Position numbers and translations under genes: made by a program
Virus record (IMG/VR): IMGVR_UViG_3300031720_000002
Span: 2,667 to 66,666 of that record
DNA: 64,000 bases
Reading direction: 5' to 3' (one strand)
From: a virus
Notes under the pieces: generated by a model
Told to the model about the DNA's origin: nothing
What the model saw: the letters and a program-made list of their open reading frames with translations, nothing else
Databases searched by the model: none
Shown here: one piece after another, positions 564-64,000 of the stretch
Layout: each line of letters starts with the position of its first letter
Numbering within the stretch: position 1 is the first letter of the stretch

Positions 564-779
564 ATGATGAAACGACAGACACCACTTCACGAGATTCTAC
601 GTCAGCGGCGTGTTGACCTTGTCATCACGCAGCAAAAGCTCGCCGCTAAAATGGGCGTCGCGCAGAGCATGGTCTCTGATTGGGAATCCGGACGTGTTTC
701 CCCTTACTACGATAACATTGTGAAGTGGACGACAGCACTCGGCATCACACTCGTCCCTACCCTCACGGAGTGGCTGTGA
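564..779 (+). CDS. XRE-family HTH transcriptional regulator
   Basis: ITQQKLAAKMGVAQSMVSDWESG HTH signature; GGAG RBS at 556-559; TGGTAGGGT extended -10 at about 490. Confidence 0.85.
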   Translation: MMKRQTPLHEILRQRRVDLVITQQKLAAKMGVAQSMVSDWESGRVSPYYDNIVKWTTALGITLVPTLTEWL

Positions 780-1840
780 CACGTATCGCACTCATCACCA
801 CGACCATCAACGTCCCAACGGTGCTCACCCAGTGGGCCAAGTCAGGAATGATTAGCGATGACATCATCATCGTCGCAGGTGACCAAAAGTCTCCACACCG
901 TGAGATTGTTGACCTACTCGCCGCAATCGAGCGCGAGACTGGCGTCGTTGGGATATACAGCCCACCAAAGATGCAGGACCTCTGGGCTATCTCGGAGAAG
1001 ATCGGCTGGAACTGCATTCAGCGTCGTAACATCGCGCTACTCGAGGCGATGATGTATAACCCCCAGTACATCCTCACGATCGATGACGACAACGCGCCTA
1101 CATCAGGCTCCCAGGTCACACAGCTCGTTGACATCATGGAGCACCGTATCACGGGCTATGAGTCCGCGCACAGTCAGGCCATCAGCACGAACACAGGGTG
1201 GTACAACCCGGGACGACAGTGCCTCACTGATCATCTTCGTCCCGTCGTCCACCGCGGGTTCCCGTTGTCCCAACGGTTCGTCGCGCCGCTCATCACGCAC
1301 ACGAAGATGGCGCCCGTTGGTGTCGCTGCGATGTTGTGGACGGGTGAGCCCGACATCGACGCGGTGGAACGCATCGCGGTGCGACCCAATGTGACGCGCA
1401 TCGGTCGTCCGAACTTCGTTCTCACTCCCGGCACGTGGGCGCCATTCAACACGCAGGCGACGATGGTTCGCGGTGACCTCGCTCCCGCACTGTTCATGTG
1501 GCCCCACGTCGGTCGGTACGACGACATCTGGGCTAGCTATGTCTACCGCAAGGTCGCAGACAAGCGTGGCTACGGTGCGTATTACGGTCACCCCGCGGTG
1601 CACCAGGACCGCAACGAGCACGACCTCGTGAAGGATCTCGAGCAGGAGATCTTCGGAATGCGGTGGAACGAGTCGATCATCCGCCTCATCCAGGACGTGA
1701 ACCTCGATCCCGACGCCGACGTGATTAGCGACGTCACTCGAATCTTCGCCGATCTCGTCATGCTCGCGCATCCTCTTCCCGACGAGACGAAGTACGCGCT
1801 TGGCGCATGGATCGATGATGTGGAGGCCATTAATGGGTAA
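776..1840 (+). CDS. GT75/RGP-STELLO-like protein (NDP-sugar pyranose/furanose mutase-like)
   Basis: Motifs ITTTIN, AGDQKSP, RRNIA, TIDDDN, HRGFP, GEPDIDA, PFNTQ, GRYDDIW, HQDRNEHDLVKDL; GTG start overlaps the HTH stop (GTGA). Confidence 0.75.
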   Translation: MTRIALITTTINVPTVLTQWAKSGMISDDIIIVAGDQKSPHREIVDLLAAIERETGVVGIYSPPKMQDLWAISEKIGWNCIQRRNIALLEAMMYNPQYILTIDDDNAPTSGSQVTQLVDIMEHRITGYESAHSQAISTNTGWYNPGRQCLTDHLRPVVHRGFPLSQRFVAPLITHTKMAPVGVAAMLWTGEPDIDAVERIAVRPNVTRIGRPNFVLTPGTWAPFNTQATMVRGDLAPALFMWPHVGRYDDIWASYVYRKVADKRGYGAYYGHPAVHQDRNEHDLVKDLEQEIFGMRWNESIIRLIQDVNLDPDADVISDVTRIFADLVMLAHPLPDETKYALGAWIDDVEAING

Positions 1841-3152
1841 GATCGTCGGCTACGGTAAGCTCGGGCGCTCGATGCCCCTCACGCTGGAGAAGTGCGCGAA
1901 TCTTGGTGGCGACGTCGAGATGGTCGCAGTGGTGAAGGAGCTCGCACTTCGCCATCCCGACGACACGTTCCTCTTGCTCGGTCGCAACACTGGCGAGATT
2001 CCTACGAAGGTCGGAATGCCGGCGAACGTCGTCAATCCGTGGGCCGAGTGGGGTTGGTCAGAGCGTCTTCTCCGTGAGGGAACACCGATCAGGAAGAAGT
2101 ACGCGATCAACCCGAATGGCTCGAACCTCGCGGTGCAGGGCCACATCGAGATGCGTGAACTCTTCCGTGACATCACCGAAAAGACGTTCGTCAAGTGTGA
2201 TGGTCACGTCTTCTGGGTCGGTCAGCACGGCTCAACGAACACGCCAGTGCCAAAGATCGAGGACATGTCCATCCTCACGAAGCCGCACGACTGGTGCGCG
2301 TACTACGCGTCGCACATTCTCCTGGGCGTCAACGCTTGGCGTGATGCACACCCAGACAAGGACGTCGTCTGGCTCAACGCTGACGCCCGTAACAAGCACA
2401 AGATGCGGGATCTCAAGCACAAGCTCATCAATCCCATCCTCACCCAGTACACCTTCTCCCACAACCTCAAGCACGAGCAGTACGACGGCACGCCGCCCAT
2501 CACTGGCGCTGTGCACAACATCTACTCGCGCCTCGAGGTCAATGGCCTCGCACCCGGGACGCCGTTTGGTGACCTCATTACGTACAACCCATCGCCCAAC
2601 TTCCGCAAGTACCGCTTCGGCATGTTCATCAACGAGGCACGCGCCATTGGCGTGAAGGCGGGCATGGATCGTCTCTCTGTGATGAAACAGTGGGTGCTGC
2701 CGCTCATCGAGAACAACAGCGAGGAGAACCCCCACTGGATTCATGGCACGTGGAGTCCCCAGTCGCAGTCAGAGCTTGGCTTCGAGATCAATCCCGCGCC
2801 GTGGGATCAGTATTATCCGATGCTCAACGACACGTTGTGCACGTTCACGACGCCGTCCAGTGGCTCCCACTGGGCGACTGCAAAGCCGTGGGAAGCGTTC
2901 GCTGGTGGAACGATCTGCTTCTTCCACCCAGACTACGACAAGCAGGACAACATCCTGCATGACGCGCATCCCAACCTCCGTGAGTGGCTGCGCGTGAAGA
3001 CTCCCAAGGATCTCAAGACACGTGTCGCTGCCGTGACGGCCAACGCGTCCACTGCGAGCTGGCTCATTCAGCGACAGCGTGAGCACTTTGTGCGAGCCAT
3101 TGAGGATAAGCGGTATCTCAAGACCATCGAGGAGATGATCTGGAATGGGTAA
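1833..3152 (+). CDS. GT-B-like glycosyltransferase, putative DNA-modifying
   Basis: N-terminal GYGKLGRS...GGDVE; C-terminal YYPML...TTPSSGSHWATAKPWEAFAGGTICFFHPDYD donor-binding-like motif; GGAGG RBS; lies between sugar enzymes and a dNTPase. Confidence 0.6.
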   Translation: MGKIVGYGKLGRSMPLTLEKCANLGGDVEMVAVVKELALRHPDDTFLLLGRNTGEIPTKVGMPANVVNPWAEWGWSERLLREGTPIRKKYAINPNGSNLAVQGHIEMRELFRDITEKTFVKCDGHVFWVGQHGSTNTPVPKIEDMSILTKPHDWCAYYASHILLGVNAWRDAHPDKDVVWLNADARNKHKMRDLKHKLINPILTQYTFSHNLKHEQYDGTPPITGAVHNIYSRLEVNGLAPGTPFGDLITYNPSPNFRKYRFGMFINEARAIGVKAGMDRLSVMKQWVLPLIENNSEENPHWIHGTWSPQSQSELGFEINPAPWDQYYPMLNDTLCTFTTPSSGSHWATAKPWEAFAGGTICFFHPDYDKQDNILHDAHPNLREWLRVKTPKDLKTRVAAVTANASTASWLIQRQREHFVRAIEDKRYLKTIEEMIWNG

Positions 3153-4065
3153 GCGAGCACTCGTGACCGGCGCTGCCGGGTTCGTCGGACGACACATGAC
3201 GAACCACCTTCACAGTCAGGGATGGGACGTCGCACGGTGTGACATCGTTGGTCCAATGGCGTGGACCATGCACGACTTCAACGATGTGACGCGGTGGAAC
3301 GACATCCGCTACGACATCGTCGTCCACTGCGCGGCGGTGGGTGCACATCGCGCCGCCATCGATGGCCAGCCTCACACGTTCGCGAAGAACATGCGACTCG
3401 ACGCCGCGCTCTTCGACTGGGCGATCAAGACGAAGCAGCGTCGCGTCATCTACATCTCGTCCAGTGCGGCATACCCCATCGAGTATCAGAACATCCTCGG
3501 CGGCGATCACGAGATGCGCCTCGAGGAGGACATGATCGACCTCTGGCACCCACGTCTCGCTGATGGCACGTACGGCGTCACGAAGCTGACCGGAGAGCAC
3601 CTCGCTAGAGCCGCTCGAGCCGCCGGCGTACCAGTTACCGTCGTGCGACCGTTCAGTGGCTACGGTGAGGATCAGGGTCCCGATTGGCCGTTCGGAGCGT
3701 TCGTCCAGCGGATCGGCGCCGGCTTCGGTCAGTCGTCCACGAATCCGTTCGTGATCTGGGGCAGCATGAAGCAGCGACGTGACTGGATCCACATCGACGA
3801 CGTCATCCATGGCATGCTCGCCATCGCGGAGTCCAAGACGGAGGATCCCGTCAATCTGTGCACGGGCGTACCCACGTCCATGAAGGACCTCGTCATGATG
3901 ATGGCGAACGTGATGGGCTACGACGAGTTTCACCTCACCGAAGACCGCGACGCTCCGATGGGCGTGTTGAACCGTGTCGGAAGTCCTGACCGATTCTTCG
4001 AGTACTATGAACCAAAGATCACGCTCGAAGAGGGCGTGTACCGAGCGTTGTGGGGCCACAAGTGA
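3145..4065 (+). CDS. NAD-dependent NDP-sugar epimerase/dehydratase (extended SDR)
   Basis: TGAAGFVG Rossmann motif, ISSSAAY, catalytic YGVTK, RDWIHIDD. Confidence 0.92.
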   Translation: MGKRALVTGAAGFVGRHMTNHLHSQGWDVARCDIVGPMAWTMHDFNDVTRWNDIRYDIVVHCAAVGAHRAAIDGQPHTFAKNMRLDAALFDWAIKTKQRRVIYISSSAAYPIEYQNILGGDHEMRLEEDMIDLWHPRLADGTYGVTKLTGEHLARAARAAGVPVTVVRPFSGYGEDQGPDWPFGAFVQRIGAGFGQSSTNPFVIWGSMKQRRDWIHIDDVIHGMLAIAESKTEDPVNLCTGVPTSMKDLVMMMANVMGYDEFHLTEDRDAPMGVLNRVGSPDRFFEYYEPKITLEEGVYRALWGHK

Positions 4066-4067
4066 CG

Positions 4068-4433
4068 ATGGACCGTCTCGAAGAGATGCTCAAGCTGCAG
4101 GACGAACTGCAGGAGCGATACACGGGCACTTCGCCAATCGACCTCGTCGGCGAGGGTCGCAAGGACTACGTGAGGACGATGGTCCTCGCTTGCACGGATG
4201 AACTTCACGAGGCTCTCCGCGAGGTCCCGTGGAAGCCGTGGTCCGGCAACACGCTGTGGGACAAGGACAGCGAGATCAACTTCAAGCTCGAACTCGTCGA
4301 CGCGTTCCACTTCTTCATGAACCTCATGCTCGTCTCGGGCATGACGGCGGACGAGCTCTTCACTGAGTACCTTCGCAAGAACGGGATCAACCACAGTCGC
4401 ATCGATGGCGGCTACTCCAGCCCCACTGGGTGA
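4068..4433 (+). CDS. Dimeric all-alpha dUTPase/dCTPase (MazG superfamily)
   Basis: DELHEALREVPWKPW, ELVDAFHFFMNL, YLRKNGINHSR; alternative GTG start at 4062. Confidence 0.85.
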   Translation: MDRLEEMLKLQDELQERYTGTSPIDLVGEGRKDYVRTMVLACTDELHEALREVPWKPWSGNTLWDKDSEINFKLELVDAFHFFMNLMLVSGMTADELFTEYLRKNGINHSRIDGGYSSPTG

Positions 4434-4454: not shown

Positions 4455-6101
4455 ATGACTCATCGCTTTGTCGACGCGCTCGGATTCGCGGGCGGATTCA
4501 CCCTGGGTATGGTCCAAGCCGGATTCGAGCTCGTCGGCAAGCGTGAGATGAAGGGTGGTTTCGGTGTCGCCAACTGCGAGGCTAATCGCCATCTGCTGGG
4601 ACAGGGATGGAAGGCTGAGTCAGTTGATCCGACCCAGTGGAGCGTCGTGGACGCTGACGCCGTCACGGGCAACCCACCTTGCTCTGGTTTCTCAGGAATG
4701 TCAGCGAAGCACTTCCGAGGAGCCAACTCTCCCATCAATCACTGCATGTGGGCGTTCGTCGACTACGTCGCCCGCGTGAAGCCGCAGATCGCGGCGTTCG
4801 AGTCAGTGCAACTTGCCTTCACGCGTGAGGACGGCCTCGCCCTCATGCGAGCCCTCCGAACGAAACTGGAGGAAGCGACAGGTGACAGGTGGACGCTCTT
4901 TCACGTTCTACACAACGCATACAGCCTCGGCGGAGTCGCGCATCGCCGACGTTATTTTTGGGTCGCAACTCGCATCCCGTTCGGCATCGAGTGGCCTCAT
5001 CGAGACAAGCTGCCTGTGTTGGACGACGCTATCGGCGACTTGGAACATCAGCCCCAAGGCTGGGCTGCCGCACCTCTTGTGGGCAATCCTTCCTGGTGGG
5101 CCGCACCTCGCACGCGTGACGACCTTCACGTGGACGGGCACGTGTCAGTGCGTGCTCCGCTCGTTCAGCGAGTGGTTGACCTTCTGCAAGGCGTGGAGTG
5201 GAACGGCGGCGAGCACCTTGCTCGACTTGCGCGCCGCTACTATGACACGTACGGACAGTTGCCCGCTTCATGGGCAGCCACGCAGGACAAGGTCGTCGCA
5301 AACGACTTCAACCTCGGATACAACACACCCGTCAGATGGAAGGGCGACGAGCCAGCGCGTGTTATCACGGGAGCAGGTCCGATCGTGGCGTTCCATCCAC
5401 GCCTGCAGCGACCGCTGACGCACCGTGAGGTCGCTCGCGTGATGGGCTTCCCGGACACGTGGCTCATCGACCCGATCAAGAACACACCGGGTCTCGTGAT
5501 GACGTGGGGCAAGGGCATCACGGTCGACTGTGGTCGCTGGATCGGCTCGTGGATCTACGATGCACTGGATGGAGAACCGGGCAAGTACCACGGCGAACGC
5601 ATCGGTGATCGCGAGTTTCTCATCGATACCACATACGCATGGCACTTGAACCTGGTACAGTCGACATTGACGCTCAGAAGATTCCGTAAACTCATTGGAG
5701 GTAACATCATGACCGAGCCTGTTGCGGCTCCCGAGGTTCCCGTCACCGAGGGTGACGAGGCTCCCGTCGCCGAGGCCAGCACGTCGCGCGCCTCGAGTGG
5801 TCGTCCGCGTCCGCAGGCCACGCTCGAGCAGGACGCGAAGGTTCTCGAGTACCTGTCGGCGGAGGAGAACGCCGACGGCAAGACGAAGGCGGAGATCGGC
5901 ACCGCCCTCGAGCTGGCGACGAACAAGGTCTACCTCTCGCTGTGGCGCCTCGGCACGCGTGAGGGCAAGATCCACCGGACGGGCTCTGGCGCGTCCGCGA
6001 AGTGGGTGGCCGGCTCCGCTCCGGAGGTCGCTGATGACGCTGCCGCTCCTGCGGCCGACGTCGAGCAGCCCGCTCCCGCGGAGGAGCACGTCGCCATCTG
6101 A
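4455..6101 (+). CDS. Divergent C5-cytosine DNA methyltransferase homolog with in-frame C-terminal wHTH-like extension
   Basis: Motif IV GNPPCSGFS, VI FESV, VIII HRRRYF, IX LTHREVARVMGFPD, X WGKGI; leaderless start after TACTAT at 4442-4447. Confidence 0.8.
   Translation: MTHRFVDALGFAGGFTLGMVQAGFELVGKREMKGGFGVANCEANRHLLGQGWKAESVDPTQWSVVDADAVTGNPPCSGFSGMSAKHFRGANSPINHCMWAFVDYVARVKPQIAAFESVQLAFTREDGLALMRALRTKLEEATGDRWTLFHVLHNAYSLGGVAHRRRYFWVATRIPFGIEWPHRDKLPVLDDAIGDLEHQPQGWAAAPLVGNPSWWAAPRTRDDLHVDGHVSVRAPLVQRVVDLLQGVEWNGGEHLARLARRYYDTYGQLPASWAATQDKVVANDFNLGYNTPVRWKGDEPARVITGAGPIVAFHPRLQRPLTHREVARVMGFPDTWLIDPIKNTPGLVMTWGKGITVDCGRWIGSWIYDALDGEPGKYHGERIGDREFLIDTTYAWHLNLVQSTLTLRRFRKLIGGNIMTEPVAAPEVPVTEGDEAPVAEASTSRASSGRPRPQATLEQDAKVLEYLSAEENADGKTKAEIGTALELATNKVYLSLWRLGTREGKIHRTGSGASAKWVAGSAPEVADDAAAPAADVEQPAPAEEHVAI
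5709..6101 (+). CDS. Small acidic wHTH-like DNA-binding protein (internal in-frame start)
   Basis: GGAGG at 5697-5701 then ATG 5709; TGGTACAGT extended -10 at about 5653; GRPRP and KVLEYL...KTKAEIGTAL...KVYLSLWRL...GKI. Confidence 0.6.
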   Translation: MTEPVAAPEVPVTEGDEAPVAEASTSRASSGRPRPQATLEQDAKVLEYLSAEENADGKTKAEIGTALELATNKVYLSLWRLGTREGKIHRTGSGASAKWVAGSAPEVADDAAAPAADVEQPAPAEEHVAI

Positions 6102-13063: not shown

Positions 13064-13623
13064 ATCGACCTCGCGATCCAGAACTGATACGTGTAGTAGG
13101 GCTGATTGAACGAATCCACCCAGGTGGGTCGCCAGTCTGTCTCGTGGAACATCTCAGAGATGCCCCACAGATCCCAGCCCCAGTAGTGTTCGTAGTTCTT
13201 CTCCGTGTCGAACTCGCCCAGTGGTGTGGTGACGCAGATCCACTTGAATCGCTCAGACGCAGCACGGAGGAAGTCCTCAGGATCGTCCAAGTGCTCGAGT
13301 GTCTCAGAGCAGATGAGGAGATCGCCACTCACCTTGCGCACGTTCTTCGCGATGTCACCAACGAAGTGAAGATGCTCAGCCGGGACGAGATCACCGAAGT
13401 GCCGTGTCTTCACGCCAGAGATCTCACGCAGGATTCGTCCATCACCACACGAAAGATCATACGCACGATCGATGTCACCGTGCAGTTTGAGGAACTCGTT
13501 GAGGCGAGTGATCGTCCAGTTCACACGGTTCGTATGCTCTTCCCATTGCGATGAATCATACGGCTTACTGTAGATCTCTCGCAGGGTTGCGGCGTCGTGC
13601 ACGTGACGCAGACGTTTGATCAC
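13054..13623 (-). CDS. Class I SAM-dependent methyltransferase
   Basis: YDLSCGDG, ICSETLEHLDDP. Confidence 0.85.
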   Translation of the reverse strand: MIKRLRHVHDAATLREIYSKPYDSSQWEEHTNRVNWTITRLNEFLKLHGDIDRAYDLSCGDGRILREISGVKTRHFGDLVPAEHLHFVGDIAKNVRKVSGDLLICSETLEHLDDPEDFLRAASERFKWICVTTPLGEFDTEKNYEHYWGWDLWGISEMFHETDWRPTWVDSFNQPYYTYQFWIARSMWL

Positions 13624-33571: not shown

Positions 33572-36500
33572 TCAGGCAGACGTGTCCACGTCAATGGCGT
33601 TATCACTGGGTGGAATCACACGGAGTCGCACAGTGACCTTCGTATTGAAGTGTTGACTGTTATCGGGAGCCTTGTTTCCCTCGATGATCTCAACGACACG
33701 ATAGTTGAGGTTAGCACCGAGGAGCATCTCCTCCTCAGAGGGATGCTGTGAGAACGTATCGACGAACGCCATTGGCGTGCCCGGTGGACACTCGATGACA
33801 AAGTTAATTTGACCACTAAACGCACTCTTACCACCGATGCTGGCAGAGAAGAACGCAGCCTGGTGGAAGTCTTCACCGAGGTGACTTTTGACTTCCTCCA
33901 CACTGCTCCATCCCGGGAACCACCCATTACCACGGTGAAGGACGATTGGCTCGAGGCTAAGCTTCATACCCTTCTGCGCGTTCATGACGTCCTTGTGGAT
34001 CTGCGCACTCGCACCACTGTAGCCACGCAAGTAGTCGTTCATCGGGTCATAACTACTACCCGTATACTTACGCAACGCAGTTTTCTGCGTCTCGTTCATC
34101 GGACCCTGTTGCGCGTTCCAATTCGCCGTCATCTGCTTGGCCTTAGCCTCAGTGATGACGGGGAAGTCCTTGCTATTCGACTTCGTCCAGTCGTAGCCCT
34201 TACTCGGGTCGAAGTCCTCAACCTGCTGAAGTGGCGGGCCGACCTTCTCGTCGATCGGCGTATTCGAAGGATGCGCGTACGACGTCCCATACCCACTAGA
34301 GCCGTACGACGAAGACGAGGACGTTGACGCTGGTGACCACGTACCGGCCTTGATCTCCGCAGCCTTCTTCTTGCCGCTTGGAGTGTTGAGCCAGTCAGTG
34401 ACTTTCTGCATGAACTTATGCTCGTCAGCGACGCCGAACTTCTTCGCGCCTTCAGCATCCACATTCGTCAGGATCGCGCCTGGCGTCATGTGAGCGTTAG
34501 CTTTTGACTGCTGCACTGCGTTCCAGTAAATGTCCTCAGGCTTATCCGTGAGGTACTTACCGTACGACGCACCCTTGAACGAGTTGTACAGCGACGTGTG
34601 ATTCGCTAGCGCATCAACCGATGGATCGCCCAGTGCTTCCTCGGGAGTGATGCTTGGACCAGCCGTCGTCGACGAAACCTTCTTCGCGGCCTTCTTCGCG
34701 GCCTTCTTCGTCACTGAGTATGCAGAGAACGGCGGTGCGACCTTCTTCGCGCCGGTCTTCTTCGCCAAACTCGGCGTGAGTGTGGGAATCGCCGGGTTGA
34801 GCTCCTTGAACGCCTTCTGCCCGTTGGGAGTCTTCAGCCACTCCTTGACCTTGTCAGAGTAGGCATTCACCTTGCCGGTCTTGGCCTGCTCCACCATGTC
34901 GAGCGCCTTGAGCAGCTCAGCATCAGACATGCCAGCGATCTTAGGATCGCCGCCCATCTTTGCCTTCGCTGCGTGCATGCTGTGATAGATCTTACTCGCA
35001 GACCAGGCGGGCGAGACTTTCTCTGCCTTGAAGTGGTGGTAGAACTGCGACTTCTGAAGATACGACAGATCCATCGCAGTGGGAGGCGGAGCAACTGACG
35101 CAGGGTACAGCTCCTTCATCGTCTCGAGCAGGTCGTCAACCTGCGCCTTCGAGATGATGCCAGCGTTGTACTTCTCGATCATCTGCTTATACTGCGCGTT
35201 CCCGACGTCGTTGAGCTCGGGATGCGCATCGGGCAGAGGTGCAGGCGACTTCACGACCTTCATGAAGTGCGCGTGCGCATTGTCACTGAGGTCAGACAGG
35301 TACATGTCAAGAACGTCTTGCTCATCAACACTCAGTGAGTGCCACTTCTCGGGAGTGAGGTTCATGATGGCGTCCGCGATCGCTGCGGGCGTGAAGCCAT
35401 CACCCTCACTATCAGCGAAGATGAGATCGTCGACAGTCACCTTCGTGTTGATGACCGGCCCAAGGTCAGGCGTGACGTCAGTCATCTCGTGCACGACGAG
35501 AGGCTTATTCGCGCTGATGACCATCTTCGGGACAAGAAGATCGCCGTTGTTTGTGGACTTAACCAACGAAGTGTGCTCGGCGTCGGAGATCACACCGGCG
35601 TTCAGCAACATCTTAAGACTCTGAAGGATCTTCGTGGGAGTCTCAGTCGACAACTTCGAGGGATCGAGGACAGAGGGTGAGGCGAGATCAGCGGTGTCTG
35701 GTCCGTTCTTCACAAGCTGAAGTTGCTGATACGCTTCCTTTTGCGTCATCATACCCTTGGTGTACTGCTCCCACAGGGTGTTGACCTCACCCATCTTGCC
35801 TGGACCATACTGGCCAATGTCCCACATACTGTCATACTGAGACTGTGTCGGTTCGTTGATCGGCCCGGCGAGGGACGGACCAGGCTCCTTCTTCCACGAC
35901 GCAGACGCTGGGACGTTCTGGCCAACGGCTGCTTTGCCCTCATCCCACGTACCATCGGGGTTCTTCTTGTGAAGCTGAACGACACCTACACCAGCGAAGT
36001 CCTTCTTAGAGAGCTTGTACTTCCCATTGGGCGAGTAGAGATCCTCACCCGTCTTAAGCACGTGCTGAAGAGCATCCTCGGTCTGCAGTGGAAAGTTACT
36101 GTCACCACTCGTGTCCGGGAGATCAGGCAGCGATGGCACATCGATGGGCTCGTTCTTCTTCCACTTCAAGCCCTTCGGCATGTCCTCGTCGGTGAAGAGT
36201 GTCTCTGGCTTATACCATCCACCGTGAGGGGCCTTCGACCACACCGTGACGTTGCCACTCGACTTGCCCTTGGTCAGAAGGTACTTCCCGTTTGTGGAGT
36301 ACATCTTCTCGCCATTGGCCTTGACGAGGTTGTACGCGCCCTTACTGCCCTGTGTGTCAAGCAACCCCACGGGCGCACTTGGCGCATTCGTCGTAGGAAC
36401 ACTCGGTGCGACAGCGCTCCACGTAATACCAACGCCTTCTTGCGTCTTAATTGACGCCTTAAGATCGTCAGCATTAAAGTGCTTATTAGTTTCGTCCCAA

Positions 36501-56486: not shown

Positions 56487-57125
56487 ATGAGCGACAGCGT
56501 GACCATCAACGACGAGACGTTCGAGATCGTCGGCCGCGAGAAAGCCGTCACCGACGAGACGATGACACCCATCGCATCGATGCAGGGCAAGGAGTTGCGG
56601 TCGGTCGACCGTATCCTTCTCGCCGACGAGCGAGAACTCTTCCAGTGCGTGCACGCGGCCAACCCGAACTGTGGCTACACCGCGAACACGATTCGCAGCG
56701 TCACCGCGCACCAGCGCACGCACAGTGGGGCAGCCGTCGCCAAGCAAAAGCAGGCCGAAGTCGACGCGGCGAACGAGCGTGCCGCAGCTGCGGAGCAGGC
56801 ACTCAACGAGCGGAAGCAGGCAGCGAGCGACCGTGCCAAGAAGGCGGCCGCGACGCGTGAGAGCCGCAAGTACGATAAGAACGATGAGGTCGCGGCTCCG
56901 ACGACGACGACGACCAACGTCAACGCCGCGAGCAAGGAAGTCACGCTCCTCATTCAGCGAGTGCAGCTCACCGCGAACGCGGTGGACGACGCCACCGAGG
57001 CACATCGCAAGGCGGTCCTCAACCTCGTCAAGTTCATCAACGACCACCCCGCGGTGGACCCGCAGATCATCGCCAAGGCCAAGCAGTACGACGTGCTCAA
57101 GGCCGCGCTCAACGGCGCCGTCTGA
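56487..57125 (+). CDS. C2H2-like Zn finger plus coiled-coil protein
   Basis: FQC...NCGY...HQRTH; AAGGA RBS. Confidence 0.7.
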   Translation: MSDSVTINDETFEIVGREKAVTDETMTPIASMQGKELRSVDRILLADERELFQCVHAANPNCGYTANTIRSVTAHQRTHSGAAVAKQKQAEVDAANERAAAAEQALNERKQAASDRAKKAAATRESRKYDKNDEVAAPTTTTTNVNAASKEVTLLIQRVQLTANAVDDATEAHRKAVLNLVKFINDHPAVDPQIIAKAKQYDVLKAALNGAV

Positions 57126-57210
57126 GCTACAGTTACCACAGCGTAATTCGCACAGAGGCCGGCGGCGATTCAACTCGCCGCCGGTCGTGGGGCAGAACGG
57201 AGGTGAGCCT

Positions 57211-57240
57211 ATGCGTACGCGTGAGTGGATCTGGTTGTGA
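57211..57240 (+). CDS. Putative 9-aa micropeptide MRTREWIWL
   Basis: GGAGGTGA Shine-Dalgarno at 57199-57206, ATG...TGA. Confidence 0.35.
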   Translation: MRTREWIWL

Positions 57241-57278
57241 TTTAGCTTACTTAGGCCGGCGATCCCATTCCCACAACT

Positions 57279-57349
57279 GAGACGAAGTCCTCCTGGTGGA
57301 GGAAGGGCAACTCGAGCCCGGGTGGTAGGTTCAATTCCTGCTCGTCTCG
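57279..57349 (+). ncRNA. tRNA-like RNA 3 (6-bp D stem, non-canonical anticodon loop)
   Basis: GAGACGA/TCGTCTC acceptor, TCCTCC-TGGT-GGAGGA, GGGC-AACTCGA-GCCC, GTAGG-TTCAATT-CCTGC. Confidence 0.7.
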
Positions 57350-57369
57350 CTCCCCCAAGCTAAGGATAG

Positions 57370-57771
57370 ATGATGAATGACCTCGAGATTGCTGCCTTCA
57401 TCGTATCACCCAGTGTGATCATCCTGTTCGGGCTGATCCTCATCCTCATCTCGTTCATCACAGCGCCGGATCCATACGAGCCGCCACAGCCCAAGCACGC
57501 CACACCTGAGGAAGCGACGACTCACTACGAGGTCGTTGAAGGTGTCATCGACGAGCTTGAGAGCTACTCACAAGTGGGTCGGCGTGGTCTCTATTCGGCA
57601 GTGCGCGCGATGCGTGTAGCGGAGGACTGGCAGCCTTACGTTGGCGATCGGCTCGTCACCATCCTAACGCAGTCAACAACTGAGTGGCTCTTCGTGCGCA
57701 AGCCAGCGCAACAGCTCACGGACCCATACGAGCGCGCTCAGTGGGCAACGCAACTCGCCACTTGCGGCTAG
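57370..57771 (+). CDS. Membrane-anchored protein
   Basis: N-terminal TM; AAGGA RBS. Confidence 0.6.
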   Translation: MMNDLEIAAFIVSPSVIILFGLILILISFITAPDPYEPPQPKHATPEEATTHYEVVEGVIDELESYSQVGRRGLYSAVRAMRVAEDWQPYVGDRLVTILTQSTTEWLFVRKPAQQLTDPYERAQWATQLATCG

Positions 57772-57780
57772 GATCAATCC

Positions 57781-58683
57781 ATGACCATCTTCGTCCTTGA
57801 GGGACCTGATGGCGCAGGGAAGTCGTACCTTGCGCAGCAGATTCAGCAAGAGCTGCCCGACACCCTCATCCTTCGGCAGGGACCACCCACGCCGGGCGAG
57901 GATCTGCTCGAGAAGTACCTCCGACCCATCGAGAACATCTTCGTCAATGGGACGCGACAAACATCTCACGTCGTGATGGACCGTTGGCACGTGGGTGAGC
58001 TGGTGTATGGTCCACTGCTGCGCGGCAAGTCGATGCTGACACGCGCACAGATGAACTACATCGACATGGTCCTCGGCACGTTCGATGCGCGATTCTACTT
58101 CATGTCTGCGTCGCTGGACACACTCCTCAAGCGGTACGACAAGCGCGGTGATGAGCTCATCAGTCGTGACCAGATCGAGCACATCAAGGACGAATACACA
58201 GATCTTCTCGTGCCGCTTTACCACTGGGAAGTCGTGTCGTTCATGCGTCTTCCATTCGTGATGCCACCCGTGCGTCACGTACAGGCGCCCAACGCGGGTC
58301 GCTACATCGGTCCACCCGGACCTAAGGTCCTCCTACTGGGCGACGTTCGCGGCAACGAGAAGTTCACGTTCCCGTTCGTGCCATACCAGGCGACATCTGG
58401 TCACTGGCTCATGACCGCGATGGCGGACGCGCACGTGGATCACATGCTCGTCGGCGTCATGAACGCCTGTGAGATGACACCCGACGAACTCAGCACCCAG
58501 TGGGACGCGCTTGGGCAGCCACCCGTCATCACGCTCGGTCGCAACGCACAACGAGCATGGAAGACCGTGGGTGACTGGAACCCAAACAAGGATCACTACC
58601 TCCATCACCCCCAATATGCGAGGAGGTTCAATCACAGGAGCACGTTCGAGTACGGACAGACGATCAAGGATGTGATGAAGTAA
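57781..58683 (+). CDS. dNMP kinase fused to a UDG-superfamily domain
   Basis: EGPDGAGKS P-loop, DRWHVGELVYG; C-terminal KVLLLGD...PFVP...SGHWL...VITLGRNA...HHPQY. Confidence 0.8.
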   Translation: MTIFVLEGPDGAGKSYLAQQIQQELPDTLILRQGPPTPGEDLLEKYLRPIENIFVNGTRQTSHVVMDRWHVGELVYGPLLRGKSMLTRAQMNYIDMVLGTFDARFYFMSASLDTLLKRYDKRGDELISRDQIEHIKDEYTDLLVPLYHWEVVSFMRLPFVMPPVRHVQAPNAGRYIGPPGPKVLLLGDVRGNEKFTFPFVPYQATSGHWLMTAMADAHVDHMLVGVMNACEMTPDELSTQWDALGQPPVITLGRNAQRAWKTVGDWNPNKDHYLHHPQYARRFNHRSTFEYGQTIKDVMK

Positions 58684-59216
58684 TGGGTGACGGCTATTAC
58701 GACGATATGGGATCGGGCTTTTATGACGATCTCGACTATTATGCCACGTACGACGATTCCGTGTACGACGATTCCGCGTACATTGAGTACCCGCAGTACA
58801 GCGTCCCTCGTGGTGGCATTCAGTTCCCGACGCAGGACACCCTCGAAGCAAGTGCGGACACAGGAGAGAAGATGAAGACGAACACCCAGCTCGCCACCGA
58901 GGCAGAGCAGCTGCGCGCCGAGGCCGAGCGCCTCGAGCAGATCCTCGCGGCGCGTGAGAAGTACGGCGATGACCCGTTCAAGAACGGCGCCGTGCTGAAG
59001 GTCGACATGAAGTACCGCGGGACCGCGCGGTCGTACGCGTACGCCGCCATCAAGACGGCCGGCAAGTTCTGGCTCAGTGGGAAGCTTTCCCGGACGGGAG
59101 CGTCCACCACCGAGGACGCGCAGCCCACCGGCATGACGTGGGAGCAGTTCGTCGGCTGGCTCAGCCAGGGGGACGCAACTGTGTGGCAGGCGGTCGGTCT
59201 ACGTCAGGTATTGTAA
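58683..59216 (+). CDS. Hypothetical protein with Asp/Tyr-rich N-terminus (alternative start 58872)
   Basis: TAATG coupling at 58683; second RBS AGGAG before ATG 58872. Confidence 0.6.
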   Translation: MGDGYYDDMGSGFYDDLDYYATYDDSVYDDSAYIEYPQYSVPRGGIQFPTQDTLEASADTGEKMKTNTQLATEAEQLRAEAERLEQILAAREKYGDDPFKNGAVLKVDMKYRGTARSYAYAAIKTAGKFWLSGKLSRTGASTTEDAQPTGMTWEQFVGWLSQGDATVWQAVGLRQVL

Positions 59217-59220
59217 TCGT

Positions 59221-60108
59221 ATGACTGAAATCGTACTGCTCGACATGAGCGAGTACCCCGTGGTGCTCCGTCGTCTCCTCCAGTTCGGGGAGCGGCGGAG
59301 CCCTCGTGGTTTGGCGACGCTGGATCTCAACTTCACCTCGATCAATCTCGTGCAGCCTCAGAAGGCCCTACCCCTGGGCATCGGGCGCAAGCTCAACCCG
59401 GCCATCGCGGCAGTCGAGGCCATCCAGCTAATCGCCGGCGTTAGTGACCCTGAGCTCGTCCTCAGACTTGCTCCGCAGTTCGAGCGGTATACCGACTGGA
59501 ACGAGGACGGCACAACCGAGCGGACGTTCTGGGGCGCGTATGGCGACCGCATCAAGATGCAGGTCCACTGCGCGGTCCAGAAGCTGACGGCCGATCCATC
59601 GACACGTCAGGCCATCGTCACCTTGTGGGACCCGTGGATGGACAACGTCCAAGGCAAGCACGACTACCCCTGCACCATCGCACTGCAGTTCTGGCTGGAC
59701 ACTGATGGCCTCCTCAGCATGAACACCATCATGCGGTCGAACGACGCGTGGCTCGGTCTCCCGTACGACGTGTTCCAGTTCACCCAGTTGCAGGCGAGTG
59801 TAGCACACGCGCTTCACACACAGCCTGGCGTGTATCGTCACACCACACTGTCGCTTCACCTCTATGAGACGAACTTTGACGAGGCGCGCGCACTCGTCAA
59901 GGATTACGTACCGCAGGCCAATCGTGAGGTGTTCCGGAACCTCTGGCTTCCCACTGAGTCGATCGGCCACCCTGGCCAGTCATTCAACGACATCATGCGA
60001 CGCGCGCAAGCGATCATGCGCAACGAGGAACTGTACGGCGAGACCCCGAGTGAAAGCTGGTACCGTGACCTCCTCCACCCCAAGGCCTCCACGTCTAACG
60101 TGGGATGA
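59221..60108 (+). CDS. Thymidylate-synthase homolog, dCMP-type (hydroxymethylase-like)
   Basis: GAYGDR, TRQA, YPCT (Cys151), MRSND, GLPYD (Asp183), SLHLYE. Confidence 0.85.
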   Translation: MTEIVLLDMSEYPVVLRRLLQFGERRSPRGLATLDLNFTSINLVQPQKALPLGIGRKLNPAIAAVEAIQLIAGVSDPELVLRLAPQFERYTDWNEDGTTERTFWGAYGDRIKMQVHCAVQKLTADPSTRQAIVTLWDPWMDNVQGKHDYPCTIALQFWLDTDGLLSMNTIMRSNDAWLGLPYDVFQFTQLQASVAHALHTQPGVYRHTTLSLHLYETNFDEARALVKDYVPQANREVFRNLWLPTESIGHPGQSFNDIMRRAQAIMRNEELYGETPSESWYRDLLHPKASTSNVG

Positions 60109-60559
60109 AGTCCGCGCGCTACAGGCGCGGCAGATCGCAAGTCGTTCACTCTGTGAACGTGACCAAGTCGGCGCCATCATCGTCAACCGCCAGCAGCGGA
60201 TCGTCGCCGAGGGATACAACGGACCACCCGCCGGCTTCGTACACGGCAACGCAGGTTGCTCGTCGTGGTGCTCACGCGCCATGTTTGCAGCGTCGACCGG
60301 TATCTTGCAGTCGGACTACCAAGACTGTCCCGCACTCCACGCTGAGGCTAACGCGCTAATGGTGTGTGACCGCAAGGACCGTGAGGGCGGTACGATCTAC
60401 GTCACGAGCGGCGTGTGTTGGGGCTGCGCCAAGTTGATCGCGAACTCTGGCCTCTCAACGGTCGTCGTCGACGCGACGACGTACGAGAAGAATCATCGCA
60501 ACACAGAGAAGTCGTACAGCTTCCTCGAGCAGTGTGGGATCACCGTTGTCACCGGATGA
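60065..60559 (+). CDS. dCMP deaminase
   Basis: RSLC...VGAII, GYNG, HAEANA, CWGC. Confidence 0.92.
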   Translation: MTSSTPRPPRLTWDEVRALQARQIASRSLCERDQVGAIIVNRQQRIVAEGYNGPPAGFVHGNAGCSSWCSRAMFAASTGILQSDYQDCPALHAEANALMVCDRKDREGGTIYVTSGVCWGCAKLIANSGLSTVVVDATTYEKNHRNTEKSYSFLEQCGITVVTG

Positions 60560-60560
60560 A

Positions 60561-62405
60561 ATGACACCTGAGCAGCAGCAACGGTCGAAAGATTTACACG
60601 CGTCTGTCACCGCGAGAAAACGGGGACTTGACGACGTCAAGCTCCATCTCATCGATAGCGTCGACGAAGCGTTCAAGTTGATGGAGTGGCTCTCACGCAG
60701 TCGACGTGACGACGTCATCGGCATCGACATTGAGACGACGGGTTTGGACAAGGTGAACGATCGTGTTCGCCTCGTCCAGATCGGTGATGAGGACGAGGGT
60801 TGGGCCATCCCGTGGGAAGACTGGGGTGGTGTGGTTCGCGAGGTCGTTCGCAAGTATAAGGGCTACTACACGGGGCACAACTTTGTCAGCTTTGACTGGA
60901 CATTCCTTGACCGTGTTGGGGTACGCGTACCTCGCGATCGGCTTCACGACACTCGTCCTATGGCGCATATTCTCGAACCCAACATGTCCACCGCGCTCAA
61001 AGTTCTCGCGTCGCGGTACATCGACTCACGTGCCGCTGCGATGCAAGAGGATCTCGACCAAGCGATTGGTTCACGCGGTGGGTGGACGTGGGCGACAGTG
61101 CCCATCGAGTTCCAGCAGTACTGGACATATGGTGCGCTCGATCCGGTCATCAGCGTTCGTCTGTTCCACCACCACAGGGAAGCCATCGAGCGAGACGGAT
61201 CCTGGGCAGCGTACGAGCTGGAGCTCGCAGTCGCATGGGTGATCCGTCAGATGGAGATCAATGGCGCACACGTGGATCGCGCGTACGCGTCGTCGTTCTA
61301 TGACAAGTACCTCGCGTACTGCAAGACCGCGGCTGAGTGGGTGACTGCCCAGTACGGCATCTCGCCGGGTAGTGACCTCGCTGTCATCGACGTCCTCAAG
61401 ACGCAAGGCTTCGAGTTCTCAAAGCGCACGAAGGGTGGGCGTGAGTCACTGGACAAGGAAGTCCTCGCCAACATCGATCATCCACTCGCACAGACGATCC
61501 TCCAGCGTCGTCAGCTCCAGAAGATCTGCTCCACGTACCTCAAGCACATCATCGAGGAAGCTGACGCGGACGATCTTCTCCATCCATCGATCAACCCGCT
61601 CGGTGCTCGGACCAGTCGGATGTCGATGTCACAACCGAACCTCCAGAACCTCCCTCGGGCATCCGAAAACAACCCTGCGGCAACAACTGTGCGGAACTGC
61701 TACACCACTCGCTACGGAGGCGACGGTCGCATGCTCTTCTGCGACTTCGACCAGATCGAGATGCGTGGTCTGGCTCACATGTCGCAAGATCCTGGCCTTC
61801 GCGCTGCGTTCCTTGCGCCGGGTGACTTCTTCGTCAACCTAGCTCGTCAGGTATTCCGTGACGACACCATCCACAAGAAGCACCCGCTTCGTCAGCGAGT
61901 GAAGAACGTCGGCTACGCCAAGATCTACGGCGCAGGCACCGCGAAGATGGCTCTCACAGCAGGCATCCCATTCGAAGAGATGGACGTCTCAGTGAAGGCG
62001 TTCGATGCCGAGTACCGCTACGTGAAGATGTTCCAGCAGCGTGTGTATCGCACCGCGATGGAGCGGAAGCAAGAGTCTGGTGTAGGCTACGTTCGCTCAC
62101 CACTTACTGGGCGTCGCCACCCATCGGACGACGGCAAGGAATACGCACTCGTCAACTACCTTGTGCAGGGACTCGCCGCTGAGATGTTCAAGATGAAACT
62201 CGTTGAGCTGGAGAACGCCGGTCTTCTCCCGTACATGATCCTCCCGGTGCATGACGAGATCATCCTCGATGTGCCGAACGATCGCTACGACGACGCGGTC
62301 ACCACTCTCAAGGACATTATGAACGATCAGAAGCTACTGTCGATTCCGGTCACCGCGGGACTGGCCTATGGTGAGAGGTGGGGAGCGAAAGTTGACATCG
62401 ACTGA
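60561..62405 (+). CDS. polA: DNA polymerase family A (3'-5' exonuclease plus polymerase)
   Basis: DIETTG, HNFVSFD, PNLQNLP, DFDQIEMR, KNVGYAKIYG, VHDE. Confidence 0.96.
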   Translation: MTPEQQQRSKDLHASVTARKRGLDDVKLHLIDSVDEAFKLMEWLSRSRRDDVIGIDIETTGLDKVNDRVRLVQIGDEDEGWAIPWEDWGGVVREVVRKYKGYYTGHNFVSFDWTFLDRVGVRVPRDRLHDTRPMAHILEPNMSTALKVLASRYIDSRAAAMQEDLDQAIGSRGGWTWATVPIEFQQYWTYGALDPVISVRLFHHHREAIERDGSWAAYELELAVAWVIRQMEINGAHVDRAYASSFYDKYLAYCKTAAEWVTAQYGISPGSDLAVIDVLKTQGFEFSKRTKGGRESLDKEVLANIDHPLAQTILQRRQLQKICSTYLKHIIEEADADDLLHPSINPLGARTSRMSMSQPNLQNLPRASENNPAATTVRNCYTTRYGGDGRMLFCDFDQIEMRGLAHMSQDPGLRAAFLAPGDFFVNLARQVFRDDTIHKKHPLRQRVKNVGYAKIYGAGTAKMALTAGIPFEEMDVSVKAFDAEYRYVKMFQQRVYRTAMERKQESGVGYVRSPLTGRRHPSDDGKEYALVNYLVQGLAAEMFKMKLVELENAGLLPYMILPVHDEIILDVPNDRYDDAVTTLKDIMNDQKLLSIPVTAGLAYGERWGAKVDID

Positions 62406-62901
62406 GACTGAACCCGGCAATGCATTTCACGTGATCGCACTTGACACTGGTCTTGTGTCTGGCGTCTGCGCCATCACGGTTGCGACTGCGCCGTACATCA
62501 CAACGACCAGTGGCATCGCTGTGAGTCACTCATCCAGTGAACGTTCATGGATTCACGCGGTGGCATACGCAGAGCGTTGGGCGCGTTCTGCCGATCAGTA
62601 CAGTAATGTATCGATGTGTTGGGAGCGCTATGATCAGACTCCCGGGCGTCGCGTTCTCACTCCCCAGCCCGAAGCCATAAAGGCGAATGGGGCGCTCGAG
62701 TACATCTCCACACAATGCGGGGTAACCTTTCGGCAACAGTCTCGTGCCGATGCGAAGAAGGTTGTCACAGATAAGGTGCTCCGTCAGCTTGGTTGGTACA
62801 AGTCTACGAAGGACGGTCACGCGAACGACGCGTCACGTCAGGCTGGTTTTTTCCTGCATCAGAACCATCCTGAACTGTGGATGAAGTTACTCGGGAAATA
62901 G
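62392..62901 (+). CDS. RuvC-like resolvase/nuclease
   Basis: IALDTGLVSG, WERY, HANDASR. Confidence 0.7.
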   Translation: MTSTETEPGNAFHVIALDTGLVSGVCAITVATAPYITTTSGIAVSHSSSERSWIHAVAYAERWARSADQYSNVSMCWERYDQTPGRRVLTPQPEAIKANGALEYISTQCGVTFRQQSRADAKKVVTDKVLRQLGWYKSTKDGHANDASRQAGFFLHQNHPELWMKLLGK

Positions 62902-62944: not shown

Positions 62945-64000
62945 ATGCCACTAGCTGAGATTTCCACCGAGGGGCCATGGATCACCGTGGCCACCCAGTG
63001 GAACGAGAAAGAGCAGATCAAAGCGATCCCGGGTTCGACGTGGGCTGCGACTGCGAAGGAATGGCGCTTGCCGCTCACCTTCGTCGCATGCTCACAGCTC
63101 AAGGGACGCTTTCCCGATACACTCCGTGTGGGGCCTCAGCTCACGGCGTGGATTTGGGCAGAGTATGAACGAAGAGTGAAGCCAGCACTTGAGTGGCGTA
63201 CGCGCTTCGAGGGCAACATCGGCGACATCATCGATCCTCGTCTGTATGGCTTCCAGCGCGATGGTGTGAAGTGGCTCATTGCGACGGAGTCTGGACTTCT
63301 CGGTGACGAGATGGGTACGGGTAAGACAATCCAGATTCTCGCGGCAATGTCACGCCTCGAGAATGCGCTGCCAGCGCTGGTCATTGCGCCAAATTCCGTG
63401 AAGGCGAACTGGGCAAAGGAGGCAGCCACATGGTTGCCACAGGCCACTCCGTACGTGCTCACTGGGACAGCTACCGTCAAGGCCAAGTTGATCGCCGCCG
63501 CTGCGAAGGACCCAACTGCGCTTGTCATTACGAACTTCGAGTCGACCCATCGGCTCTCAAGACTCGCGGGATTTGGCTCAATCCGCCTACTCCGTTGCCG
63601 GGAGTGTGACCCGCAACATGGCGCGGAAGGGCTTCGTGCGTCGTCGTGCGAGGTGCATCCACGACCACTCAACGAGATTCCATTCAAGACAGTCATCGTG
63701 GATGAAGCACACCGGATCAAGGATCCGAAGGCAAAACAGACGAGAGCCACATGGGCGCTTTCGACAGGTCATTCTGTGGTACGCCGCTGGGCACTTACCG
63801 GCACGCCTCTGGCTAACGATCCGAGTGACCTATGGGCCATTGCGCACTTCTACGCGCCACAAGAGTTCCCGACGAAGTCTAAGTTCGTCGACCTCTATTG
63901 CCTCCTAGCGTGGAACGTGCACGGTGGACTCGACATCGTAGGTATCAACCCGGAAAATAAGGACGAGTTCTACAAGATCTTCGATCCGCGCTTCCGTCGC
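62945..64000 (+). CDS. SNF2-family helicase (3'-truncated; absent from the ORF track)
   Basis: Hand translation from ATG 62945: YGFQRDG, GDEMGTGKT, VIVDEAHRIK, ALTGTP. Confidence 0.92.
   Translation, partial: MPLAEISTEGPWITVATQWNEKEQIKAIPGSTWAATAKEWRLPLTFVACSQLKGRFPDTLRVGPQLTAWIWAEYERRVKPALEWRTRFEGNIGDIIDPRLYGFQRDGVKWLIATESGLLGDEMGTGKTIQILAAMSRLENALPALVIAPNSVKANWAKEAATWLPQATPYVLTGTATVKAKLIAAAAKDPTALVITNFESTHRLSRLAGFGSIRLLRCRECDPQHGAEGLRASSCEVHPRPLNEIPFKTVIVDEAHRIKDPKAKQTRATWALSTGHSVVRRWALTGTPLANDPSDLWAIAHFYAPQEFPTKSKFVDLYCLLAWNVHGGLDIVGINPENKDEFYKIFDPRFRR

Follow-up and report, generated by a model that had tools for sequence, protein, structure and literature searches.

The virus genome of IMG/VR record IMGVR_UViG_3300031720_000002 encodes a homolog of thymidylate synthase (TS) that is predicted to use deoxycytidine monophosphate (dCMP) as substrate and whose most likely product, with a probability of about 0.65, is 5-hydroxymethyl-dCMP (5hm-dCMP), later glycosylated on the DNA in the style of phage T4. 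The window analysed here is the whole stretch of 64,000 nucleotides running from position 2,667 to position 66,666 of this record, and coordinates refer to the window unless record bases are specified (Table 1). The protein is read as a dCMP hydroxymethylase because it combines Asp, Thr, Asp and Asp at positions 143, 147, 169 and 177 (E. coli ThyA numbering) with Ser173 and Arg129 of its own sequence.

Active-site residues of the thymidylate synthase homolog

The open reading frame (ORF) of the TS homolog has the base composition predicted for a coding frame, with a GC content of 0.79 at third positions vs 0.42 at second positions, and its product matches the Pfam family PF00303 (Thymidylat_synt) with an E-value of 6.8e-19 (68.5 bits, cut-off 24.3), as well as four PHROG thymidylate-synthase families (best E 2.8e-39). 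Genome-wide, this is the single PF00303 match, and neither ThyX nor dihydrofolate reductase (DHFR) was found. A search over ~5.8 billion proteins gave 6167 candidates, of which 2873 are relatives of the TS homolog at E<=1e-3, and the best 120 of these relatives were aligned with reference enzymes for the column counts given below. What the data show directly is the fold, the residues and the gene order, along with how far each is conserved.

The initial annotation had placed an Asp where ThyA carries the Asn of its PFN motif and had taken this Asp for the selector of dCMP; the former is confirmed and the latter supported. Asp183, which closes the motif RSNDAWLGLPYD, pairs in BLASTP alignments with Asp179 of T4 gp42 (...RSND...D179) and with Asn177 of E. 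coli ThyA (RSCD...N177, within ...GLPFN...). Column 177 holds Asp in 120/120 of the best homologs and in every row of the 17-row alignment A1; to judge from these alignments, the presence of this Asp at the selector column is not due to chance. In published mutagenesis and surveys, it is the residue at this position that selects the base, the replacement of ThyA Asn177 by Asp switching the preference from dUMP to dCMP (PMC13326640; PMC6400193; PMC5175136).

As to the group added to the base, the DYPC motif places Asp148 at the position of T4 Asp145 and ThyA Leu143, three residues before the catalytic Cys151. True TSs are described as carrying Leu at this position and hydroxymethylases as carrying either Asp or Glu, hydroxymethylation being reported to go along with an acidic residue at 143 (PMC13326640). 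In T4 gp42, the carboxylate of Asp145 has been proposed to activate a water molecule for its addition to the exocyclic methylene intermediate, and the D145N substitution abolishes the formation of 5hm-dCMP (PMC6400193). A hydroxymethyl product is thus favoured, since Asp148 occupies the very position at which this substitution acts.

Further positions bear on the sugar and on other possible products. The window protein has Ser173 and Arg129 at ThyA positions 167 and 126, and Asp175 at position 169. Ser167 and Arg126 are reported to mark the users of deoxyribose nucleotides, MilA having Ala176 and Lys133 instead, and the A176S/K133R double mutant of MilA changes its preference from CMP to dCMP (PMC5175136). 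ThyA Asp169, for its part, is replaced by Asn in all tested 5-hydroxy-dCMP synthases (PMC13326640), and 5-hydroxy-dCMP is disfavoured here because Asp175 is kept. The complete signature reads, in E. coli numbering, R21, E58, Y94, R126, D143, C146, T147, R166, S167, D169, D177, H207 and Y209, of which R126, D143, C146 (the catalytic Cys151, T4 Cys148), T147, S167, D169 and D177 are each present in 120/120 homologs, as is the general-acid Glu66 (T4 Glu60).

These positions were compared with a reference panel of enzymes from phages of known DNA chemistry. At 143/147/169/177, the panel reads L/H/D/N in E. coli ThyA (canonical T), N/P/D/D in Xp12 and PaMx74 (5-methyl-C), D/T/D/D in T4 gp42 (hydroxymethyl-C), D/N/D/N in SPO1-like gp29 and PaMx11 gp51 (hydroxymethyl-U lineages) and E/T/N/D in RB69 gp48 (5-hydroxy-C). 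The window protein, whose chemistry is predicted, reads D/T/D/D. The product, first annotated as hydroxymethyl-, methyl- or hydroxy-dCMP, can therefore be narrowed to the hydroxymethyl form by Asp148, the hydroxy form being disfavoured by Asp175 and the methylases carrying Asn143 and Pro147.

The AlphaFold2 model of the TS homolog (pLDDT 90.4, pTM 0.90) has as its best structural matches four MilA entries (Z 27.5-28.0, root-mean-square deviation 2.6-2.9 Å, 262-270 residues aligned, C-terminal extension included), followed by the HY126 dCMP hydroxylase (Z 22.3-23.5) and then by canonical TSs (Z ~21). This ranking, with MilA at Z 28.0 and the HY126 enzyme second at up to Z 23.5, could be taken in favour of another C5 product, either a flavin-dependent 5-hydroxy-dCMP as made by RB69 gp48 and HY126 AfhB, or a product derived from CMP as in the case of MilA, and the genome does hold sugar-nucleotide genes and glycosyltransferases as do the arabinosyl-5-hydroxycytosine phages. 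Such a product is nevertheless highly improbable: the diagnostic D169N change is absent, with Asp in 120/120 homologs, Ser173 and Arg129, of the deoxyribose type, stand where MilA has its ribose-type Ala and Lys, and the gene is located in a DNA replication operon.

An ordinary TS converting dUMP into dTMP, fed by the neighbouring dCMP deaminase, would be metabolically sensible, and the relatives are publicly annotated as 'thymidylate synthase'. This is barely credible, however, given Asp/Asp/Thr rather than Asn/Leu/His at 177/143/147 and a model nearer to hydroxymethylases than to any TS. In the same line, the protein falls far under the cut-offs of all seven NCBIfam TS equivalog models, with at most 64.2 bits vs cut-offs of 108-427 (174.6 for the best model).

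A phylogeny with gp42-like enzymes, proposed at the outset as a check, separates the window family (13 of 21 rows, support 93/95) from a clade uniting ThyA with Xp12 and PaMx74 (95/87). It serves for that separation only, the gp42 and RB69 gp48 branches being 5-7 changes per column long and hence unplaceable.

Two lines of comparison were given up. Trp80 and Trp83 were dropped as markers of hydride transfer, since T4 gp42 has a Trp aligned with position 80, a column that is variable inside individual classes. In addition, a homolog of Pseudoxanthomonas phage PW916 (3280-4098), annotated as 'deoxyuridylate hydroxymethyltransferase', has Asp at both 177 and 143; it is predicted to act on dCMP, its public label being probably wrong, and this label was given no weight as counter-evidence, the abstract of the corresponding paper mentioning no nucleoside analysis.

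The overlapping dCMP deaminase

The gene downstream of the TS homolog encodes a deaminase with HAE and CxxC zinc motifs that matches PF00383 (E 1.7e-14). Its best PDB sequence match is the T4 dCMP deaminase (1vq2, E 8.9e-13), the Xp12 deaminase being further away (29% identity, E 3e-7), and its score lies under the cut-off of the NCBIfam ComEB equivalog. The overlap between the two genes is real but falls short of 245 nt. The deaminase frame is open from 59864 to 60559, 59864 being merely its first ATG, and the conserved deaminase core (TWDE...) starts 11 nt before the TS stop codon. Since the nearest in-frame starts upstream of this core are GTG 60065 and then GTG 60050, the overlap amounts to 44 or 59 nt, as deduced from the reading frames; ATG 60105 lies in a different frame and was discarded as a start. 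Downstream, the polymerase gene starts 26 nt before the deaminase stop.

For the genomic neighbourhood, at least 524 relatives of the TS homolog were retrieved from IMG/VR, 80 loci were kept, and their neighbours were sought by tblastn in flanks of at most 10 kb. The junction was surveyed in the 78 sequences holding both genes, i.e. 77 related loci and the window. The deaminase core lies within 150 nt of the TS stop in 37 of the 78, and all candidate deaminase starts fall inside the TS gene, so that overlap is forced, in 29 of these 37 adjacent cases. The overlap would therefore be a conserved feature of the nearer relatives, which suggests translational coupling.

A deaminase next to an Asp177 TS homolog brings in another scenario, already offered by the initial annotation, in which the TS homolog is a dCMP methyltransferase and the deaminase, preferring 5-methyl-dC nucleotides, turns part of the 5-methyl-dCMP into thymidine nucleotides, a single TS homolog thereby supplying both 5-methylcytosine (5mC) and T. 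The formation of thymidine nucleotides through deamination of 5-methyl-dC nucleotides has indeed been proposed in a preprint for Xp12-like phages, the Xp12 enzyme being a proven methylase (10.1101/2024.12.05.627091). According to the same preprint, 104 of the 149 deaminases encoded by cytosine-modified contigs have a TS homolog no more than 3 kb away, 5 of 7 tested TS homologs with a deaminase partner made 5m-dCMP, and 34 of 194 soluble deaminase candidates were 5mC-selective. The present genome, with one TS homolog, a deaminase in cis and no ThyX found, agrees with such a scheme; besides, Asp177 by itself cannot separate methyl from hydroxymethyl, and the T4-style Ser/Thr-x-Tyr element is absent from the window family.

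Several differences nonetheless make this scenario unlikely. Xp12 and PaMx74 have Asn143 and Pro147, whereas the window protein and 120/120 relatives have Asp143 and Thr147, as do gp42 and MilA; the exchange of the T4 Asp for Asn stops hydroxymethylation, so that both states look functionally distinct (PMC6400193). The two methylation-type enzymes cluster in the tree with ThyA and not with the window family. Moreover, a methylase yields dihydrofolate, yet the genome has no DHFR match, while Xp12 and PaMx74 encode DHFR beside TS and deaminase; these three marks (Asn143/Pro147, kinship and DHFR partner) are features observed in two members rather than a published definition. A hydroxymethylase, on the other hand, regenerates tetrahydrofolate and does not require DHFR (PMC6400193), which the DHFR-less genome fits. 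The window deaminase is closer to T4 cd than to the Xp12 deaminase, and the conserved glycosyltransferase described below, which resembles the T4 beta-glucosyltransferase (BGT), would have no acceptor on 5mC. Deamination of 5m-dCMP to dTMP, although a published route in Xp12-like phages, is thus weakened here by Asp143 and Thr147.

The deaminase could also accept 5hm-dC nucleotides, in which case 5hm-dCMP would be made and the DNA would receive both 5-hydroxymethyluracil (hmU) and 5-hydroxymethylcytosine (hmC), each derived from cytosine. The forced overlap of the two genes speaks for such a link, and in an in-vivo screen 7 of 90 in-cis deaminases gave 5hmdU from a 5hmdC pool (10.1101/2024.12.05.627091). 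The TS partners of all seven, however, were expected to produce 5m-dCMP, as was confirmed for five (10.1101/2024.12.05.627091), the window deaminase resembles an ordinary dCMP deaminase of the T4-cd or human type, and a gene set for hmU hypermodification is absent from the PHROG and Pfam scans of 58 and 18 ORFs, respectively. This mixed composition is accordingly held to be very unlikely.

Glycosyltransferase, neighbouring genes and the proposed pathway

Glycosylation of hydroxymethyl groups would call for a suitable enzyme, for which a 450-aa protein encoded near the other end of the window is the candidate. Pfam and PDB sequence matches were not found for this protein, and its AlphaFold2 model (pLDDT 82) has a GT-B fold. 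The top Foldseek match is T4 BGT (1j39, E 1.6e-7), and VIA-align ranks four T4 BGT entries first (Z 20.9-21.6, 311-319 residues aligned), ahead of BshA (Z 19.6) and of the T4 alpha-glucosyltransferase (Z 17.4). In the same line, a language-model search listed a cluster whose members all have a T4-Gluco-transf domain (score 0.95). As judged from the model, the protein is BGT-like without being a member of the PF09198 family. The GT-B profile gave matches in 21 of 37 large related records; among the 15 with a completeness rating of 90% or more, 13 have it, and the other two are phages of 129-131 kb with more distant TS homologs.

The adjoining ORFs relate to sugar and nucleotide metabolism. The product of ORF 776-1840 matches PDB entry 7xpr, named 'Transglycosylse' by its depositors, with an E-value of 1.4e-31; a literature search on this PDB code returned unrelated papers only. 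The epimerase has GDP-L-fucose synthase as its best NCBIfam match (E 8.8e-20, under the cut-off), and the presence of the RGP-like and epimerase genes suggests that the phage may supply its own unusual sugar donor. The MazG-like ORF also matches phrog_173 (E 2.8e-22) and PDB 1w2y (E 2e-5). Next to it, the C5-cytosine DNA methyltransferase homolog has intact-looking motifs and a long C-terminal tail. A post-replicative route through a methyltransferase, a TET enzyme and a glycosyltransferase was set aside, Tet_JBP having no match at E<=0.1 in the genome. For the 318-aa ORF 6242-7198, no Pfam match was found at E<=5.

A second cluster lies by the tail genes (11403-14940, minus strand), with glycosyltransferase-like ORFs at 11403-12587, 12470-13063 and 14236-14940 and two class-I methyltransferases at 13054-13749 and 13620-14243.

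On the other side of the TS homolog, the kinase domain is most like YorR of SPbeta (PDB 2axp, E 3.8e-8), and the C-terminal domain of the same protein (~150 aa) matches UDG PF03167 with an E-value of 0.013, under the cut-off. This domain carries GDVRG; family-4 UDGs have GE(A/G)PG at the equivalent motif. The fusion is kept in most related loci (~295-365 aa), and a few have the kinase alone (172-183 aa). YorR-like kinases are listed in a published table beside the cytosine-modifying TS homologs of DLP3, RB69 and RL38J1, and the window kinase belongs to the same fold class. In Actinomycetia phage DSL-LC01, the genes are annotated in the same order: kinase, TS, deaminase, PolA, RuvC, helicase, nuclease and RecA-like.

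Table 1. Features discussed in the text, with window coordinates and occurrence in related loci
Feature	Coordinates	Strand	Basis	Related loci
TS-superfamily enzyme, predicted dCMP hydroxymethylase, 295 aa	59221..60108	+	PF00303, AlphaFold2 model, active-site signature	
Motif RSNDAWLGLPYD, residues 172-183, with predicted base selector Asp183 (codon 59767-59769)	59734..59769	+	gp42/ThyA alignment	
DYPC: Asp148 (T4 Asp145 / ThyA Leu143 position) and catalytic Cys151	59662..59673	+	Column table	
dCMP deaminase, downstream of TS	60065..60559 (alternative start GTG 60050)	+	PF00383, zinc motifs, T4 cd 1vq2	77/80
P-loop nucleotide kinase (YorR / thymidylate-kinase-like) with weak UDG-superfamily-like C-terminal domain, upstream of TS	57781..58683	+	phrog_761 E 2.4e-16	80/80
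177-aa protein, function unassigned, between kinase and TS	58683..59216	+	Only phrog_1342 (unknown function) E 5.4e-6	5/80
Family A DNA polymerase (PolA) with 3'-5' exonuclease, downstream of TS, start overlapping deaminase end	60534..62405	+	PF00476 E 1.2e-60; PF01612 E 6.3e-10	79/80
RuvC-like				26/80
GT-B glycosyltransferase, candidate DNA hmC glycosyltransferase, 450-aa protein	1833..3152	+	Model most like T4 BGT	26/80
RGP / GT75 / STELLO-like glycosyltransferase or sugar mutase	776..1840	+	PF03214 E 1.6e-11; Atlas clusters RGP/STELLO	14/80
NAD-dependent NDP-sugar epimerase/reductase (SDR)	3145..4065	+	PF01370 E 1.9e-36	3/80
All-alpha MazG / dimeric-dUTPase-like NTP pyrophosphohydrolase, candidate dCTPase/dUTPase	4050..4433	+	PF08761 E 2.3e-14	15/80
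C5-cytosine DNA methyltransferase homolog, 548 aa, PC, ESV and RRR motifs	4455..6101	+	PF00145 E 5.5e-17	1/80

From these genes we infer a substrate, a product, a coupling and a series of steps following the TS homolog, which could be arranged as follows. The MazG-like pyrophosphatase would return dCTP and dUTP to the monophosphates, and the TS homolog, with methylene-tetrahydrofolate, would turn dCMP into 5hm-dCMP, the committed step of a T4-like pre-replicative pathway. In the active site, Cys151 would attack C6, Asp183 would read the N3/N4 face of cytosine, and Asp148 would activate the water molecule trapping the exocyclic methylene intermediate, thereby replacing hydride transfer. The YorR-like kinase would begin the phosphorylation of 5hm-dCMP, host enzymes helping to reach the triphosphate, and the phage PolA would incorporate the hydroxymethyl-dC nucleotide into DNA, whose hydroxymethyl groups would then probably be glycosylated by the BGT-like enzyme, perhaps with the assistance of the RGP-like enzyme and of a sugar made by the epimerase. 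Finally, the T4-cd-like deaminase, probably translationally coupled, would drain leftover dCMP to dUMP for the host thymidylate synthase, a destination suggested by the fact that the phage has no ThyA-type TS, ThyX or DHFR. The genomic context, which comprises kinase, deaminase and PolA genes next to those of the MazG-like pyrophosphatase and the T4-BGT-like glycosyltransferase in the same genome, fits the pre-replicative cytosine modification put forward in the initial annotation.

A bolder variant considers the overlapping genes as a functional pair, in which the deaminase would act on C5-substituted dC, modified C and T or hydroxymethyl-U would both derive from dCMP through one TS-like enzyme, and the hydroxymethyl groups would be decorated with an unusual sugar coming from the phage's own epimerase and RGP-like enzymes; this is regarded as quite unlikely.

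Several points weigh against a dCMP hydroxymethylase followed by DNA glycosylation. The sequence kinship to gp42 is weak, with 28% identity over the 83 residues that BLASTP can align, and the very long branch of gp42 shows no specific grouping with the window family. The product is read from few residues, and a second signature element proposed in the T4 paper, a Ser/Thr two residues before the catalytic Tyr (T4 Ser94; PMC6400193), is lacking, the window protein having Gly105-Ala-Tyr107, with Gly in 120/120 homologs. The Xp12-like 5mC phages show the same arrangement, their only TS homolog being of the Asp177 type and accompanied in cis by a deaminase. Regarding glycosylation, PF09198, the T4 BGT family, has zero matches genome-wide at E<=1, and the BGT likeness is structural only, with 8-10% identity and the next GT-B family just 2 Z lower. 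Besides, the C5-methyltransferase homolog is hard to reconcile with full replacement of C, under which it would have no substrate, and the tail-side cluster may serve the glycosylation of virion proteins rather than that of DNA, an idea that stems from mycobacteriophage work.

Some of these points may be tempered. The Ser/Thr-x-Tyr feature is perhaps non-discriminating, since the enzymes of hmU phages lack it (Ala in SPO1-like gp29, Gly in PaMx11 gp51) and Xp12 has Ser. Because this feature is missing, the window protein is not placed in the gp42 family proper, although it most likely works like gp42. As for the C5-methyltransferase homolog, it looks like an accessory gene, as it occurs in just one of the 80 related loci.

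The record itself comprises 66,666 bases, has a CheckV completeness of 100% and, over the window, a GC content of ~60%. According to the PHROG scan, it encodes a WhiB-like regulator and tailed-phage structural genes, and the WhiB-like gene points to an actinobacterium as the probable host. The contig ends split a helicase gene between window positions 62945-64000 and record bases 1-708; the start of the record (bases 1-2666) holds the rest of this helicase, then a PD-(D/E)XK nuclease and a RecA-like ATPase. From the gene order of relatives, the record is seen to be a circular permutation with little or nothing missing, though IMG/VR classes it as linear; the genes at 776-6101 thus come immediately after the replication genes, downstream of them and in the same orientation. 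A search for near-identical DNA in a phage collection, with 57000-62500 as query, gave zero matches, the collection thus holding no annotated close relative.

Two large ORFs on the minus strand were also noted. The first (33572-38560, 1662 aa) combines a head-morphogenesis region (SPP1 gp7-like) with a C-terminal PHROG match labelled ADP-ribosyltransferase (E 8.1e-11). The second (31146-33554, 802 aa) has an RNA-ligase-like N-terminal part (phrog_2659, E 1.1e-33) and another region matching portal, head maturation protease and virion structural PHROGs (phrog_859, E 3.5e-91; phrog_18402, E 1.2e-89).

Comparison with known systems

If the proposed pathway is true, widespread uncultured actinobacterial phages of ~60-66 kb replace C by (glycosyl-)hydroxymethylcytosine, and such DNA would withstand many restriction enzymes, with consequences for the sequencing and cloning of these phages. 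A limited literature search found no chemically shown C5-cytosine replacement in an actinobacterial phage. The enzyme would also offer a natural test of the residues distinguishing methyl from hydroxymethyl transfer, since only one half of the proposed signature, the Asp before the Cys, is found in it, the Ser/Thr-x-Tyr half being absent.

The window protein shares with T4 gp42 the Asp at -3 from the catalytic Cys, the Thr following this Cys, the RSND motif and the Asp at the 177/179 selector position. At the level of the pathway, gp56 dCTPase, cd, gp1 and beta-glucosyltransferase of T4 find their likeness in the pyrophosphatase, deaminase, kinase and BGT-like glycosyltransferase of the window genome. 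Unlike gp42, to which it is alignable over those 83 residues only and with which it does not group in the tree, it has Gly in place of Ser94 and a MilA-like C-terminal extension of ~70 residues. The window kinase resembles YorR rather than gp1 and carries a fused UDG-like domain, the genome has neither a second, true TS nor DHFR, and the host, judging from the WhiB-like gene, would be an actinobacterium.

MilA, the CMP 5-hydroxymethylase of Streptomyces rimofaciens (PDB 5b6d and 5jnh), is the best PDB sequence match (E 9.1e-19) and resembles the window protein over residues 3-294 (Z 28.0, 27-29% identity), with which it shares the C-terminal extension as well as an Asp at 143 and another at 177. 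It differs by Ala176 and Lys133, for which the window protein has Ser173 and Arg129, the very state that is reported to reverse the preference of MilA to dCMP (PMC5175136), and by its context of nucleoside antibiotic synthesis as opposed to phage DNA replication.

Xanthomonas phage Xp12 and Pseudomonas phage PaMx74 resemble the window in that their TS homolog has Asp177, is followed directly by a deaminase gene and is not complemented by another TS, and they differ from it by Asn143/Pro147, a DHFR gene next door and their grouping with ThyA. The 5-hydroxy-dCMP synthases (RB69 gp48, DLP3 gp80 and HY126 AfhB) share the TS fold, Asp177, an acidic residue at 143 and, nearby, a YorR/thymidylate-kinase-like kinase and glycosyltransferases, but their diagnostic Asn169 is Asp in the window protein.

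Finally, an Asp177 TS homolog, a dCMP deaminase, PRA-PH/MazG and PolA, as found here, are typical of the cytosine-modified viral contigs reported from MetaGPA metaviromes (10.1101/2024.12.05.627091; eLife paper); the consulted text of these reports describes neither the actinophage clade nor the BGT-like partner. Taken together, both the T4-style pathway and modules combining an Asp177 TS homolog with a deaminase are already known, and what is new here is a TS-superfamily clade of actinobacterial phages, MilA-like and of the deoxyribose type, together with its conserved deaminase overlap and its BGT-like partner.

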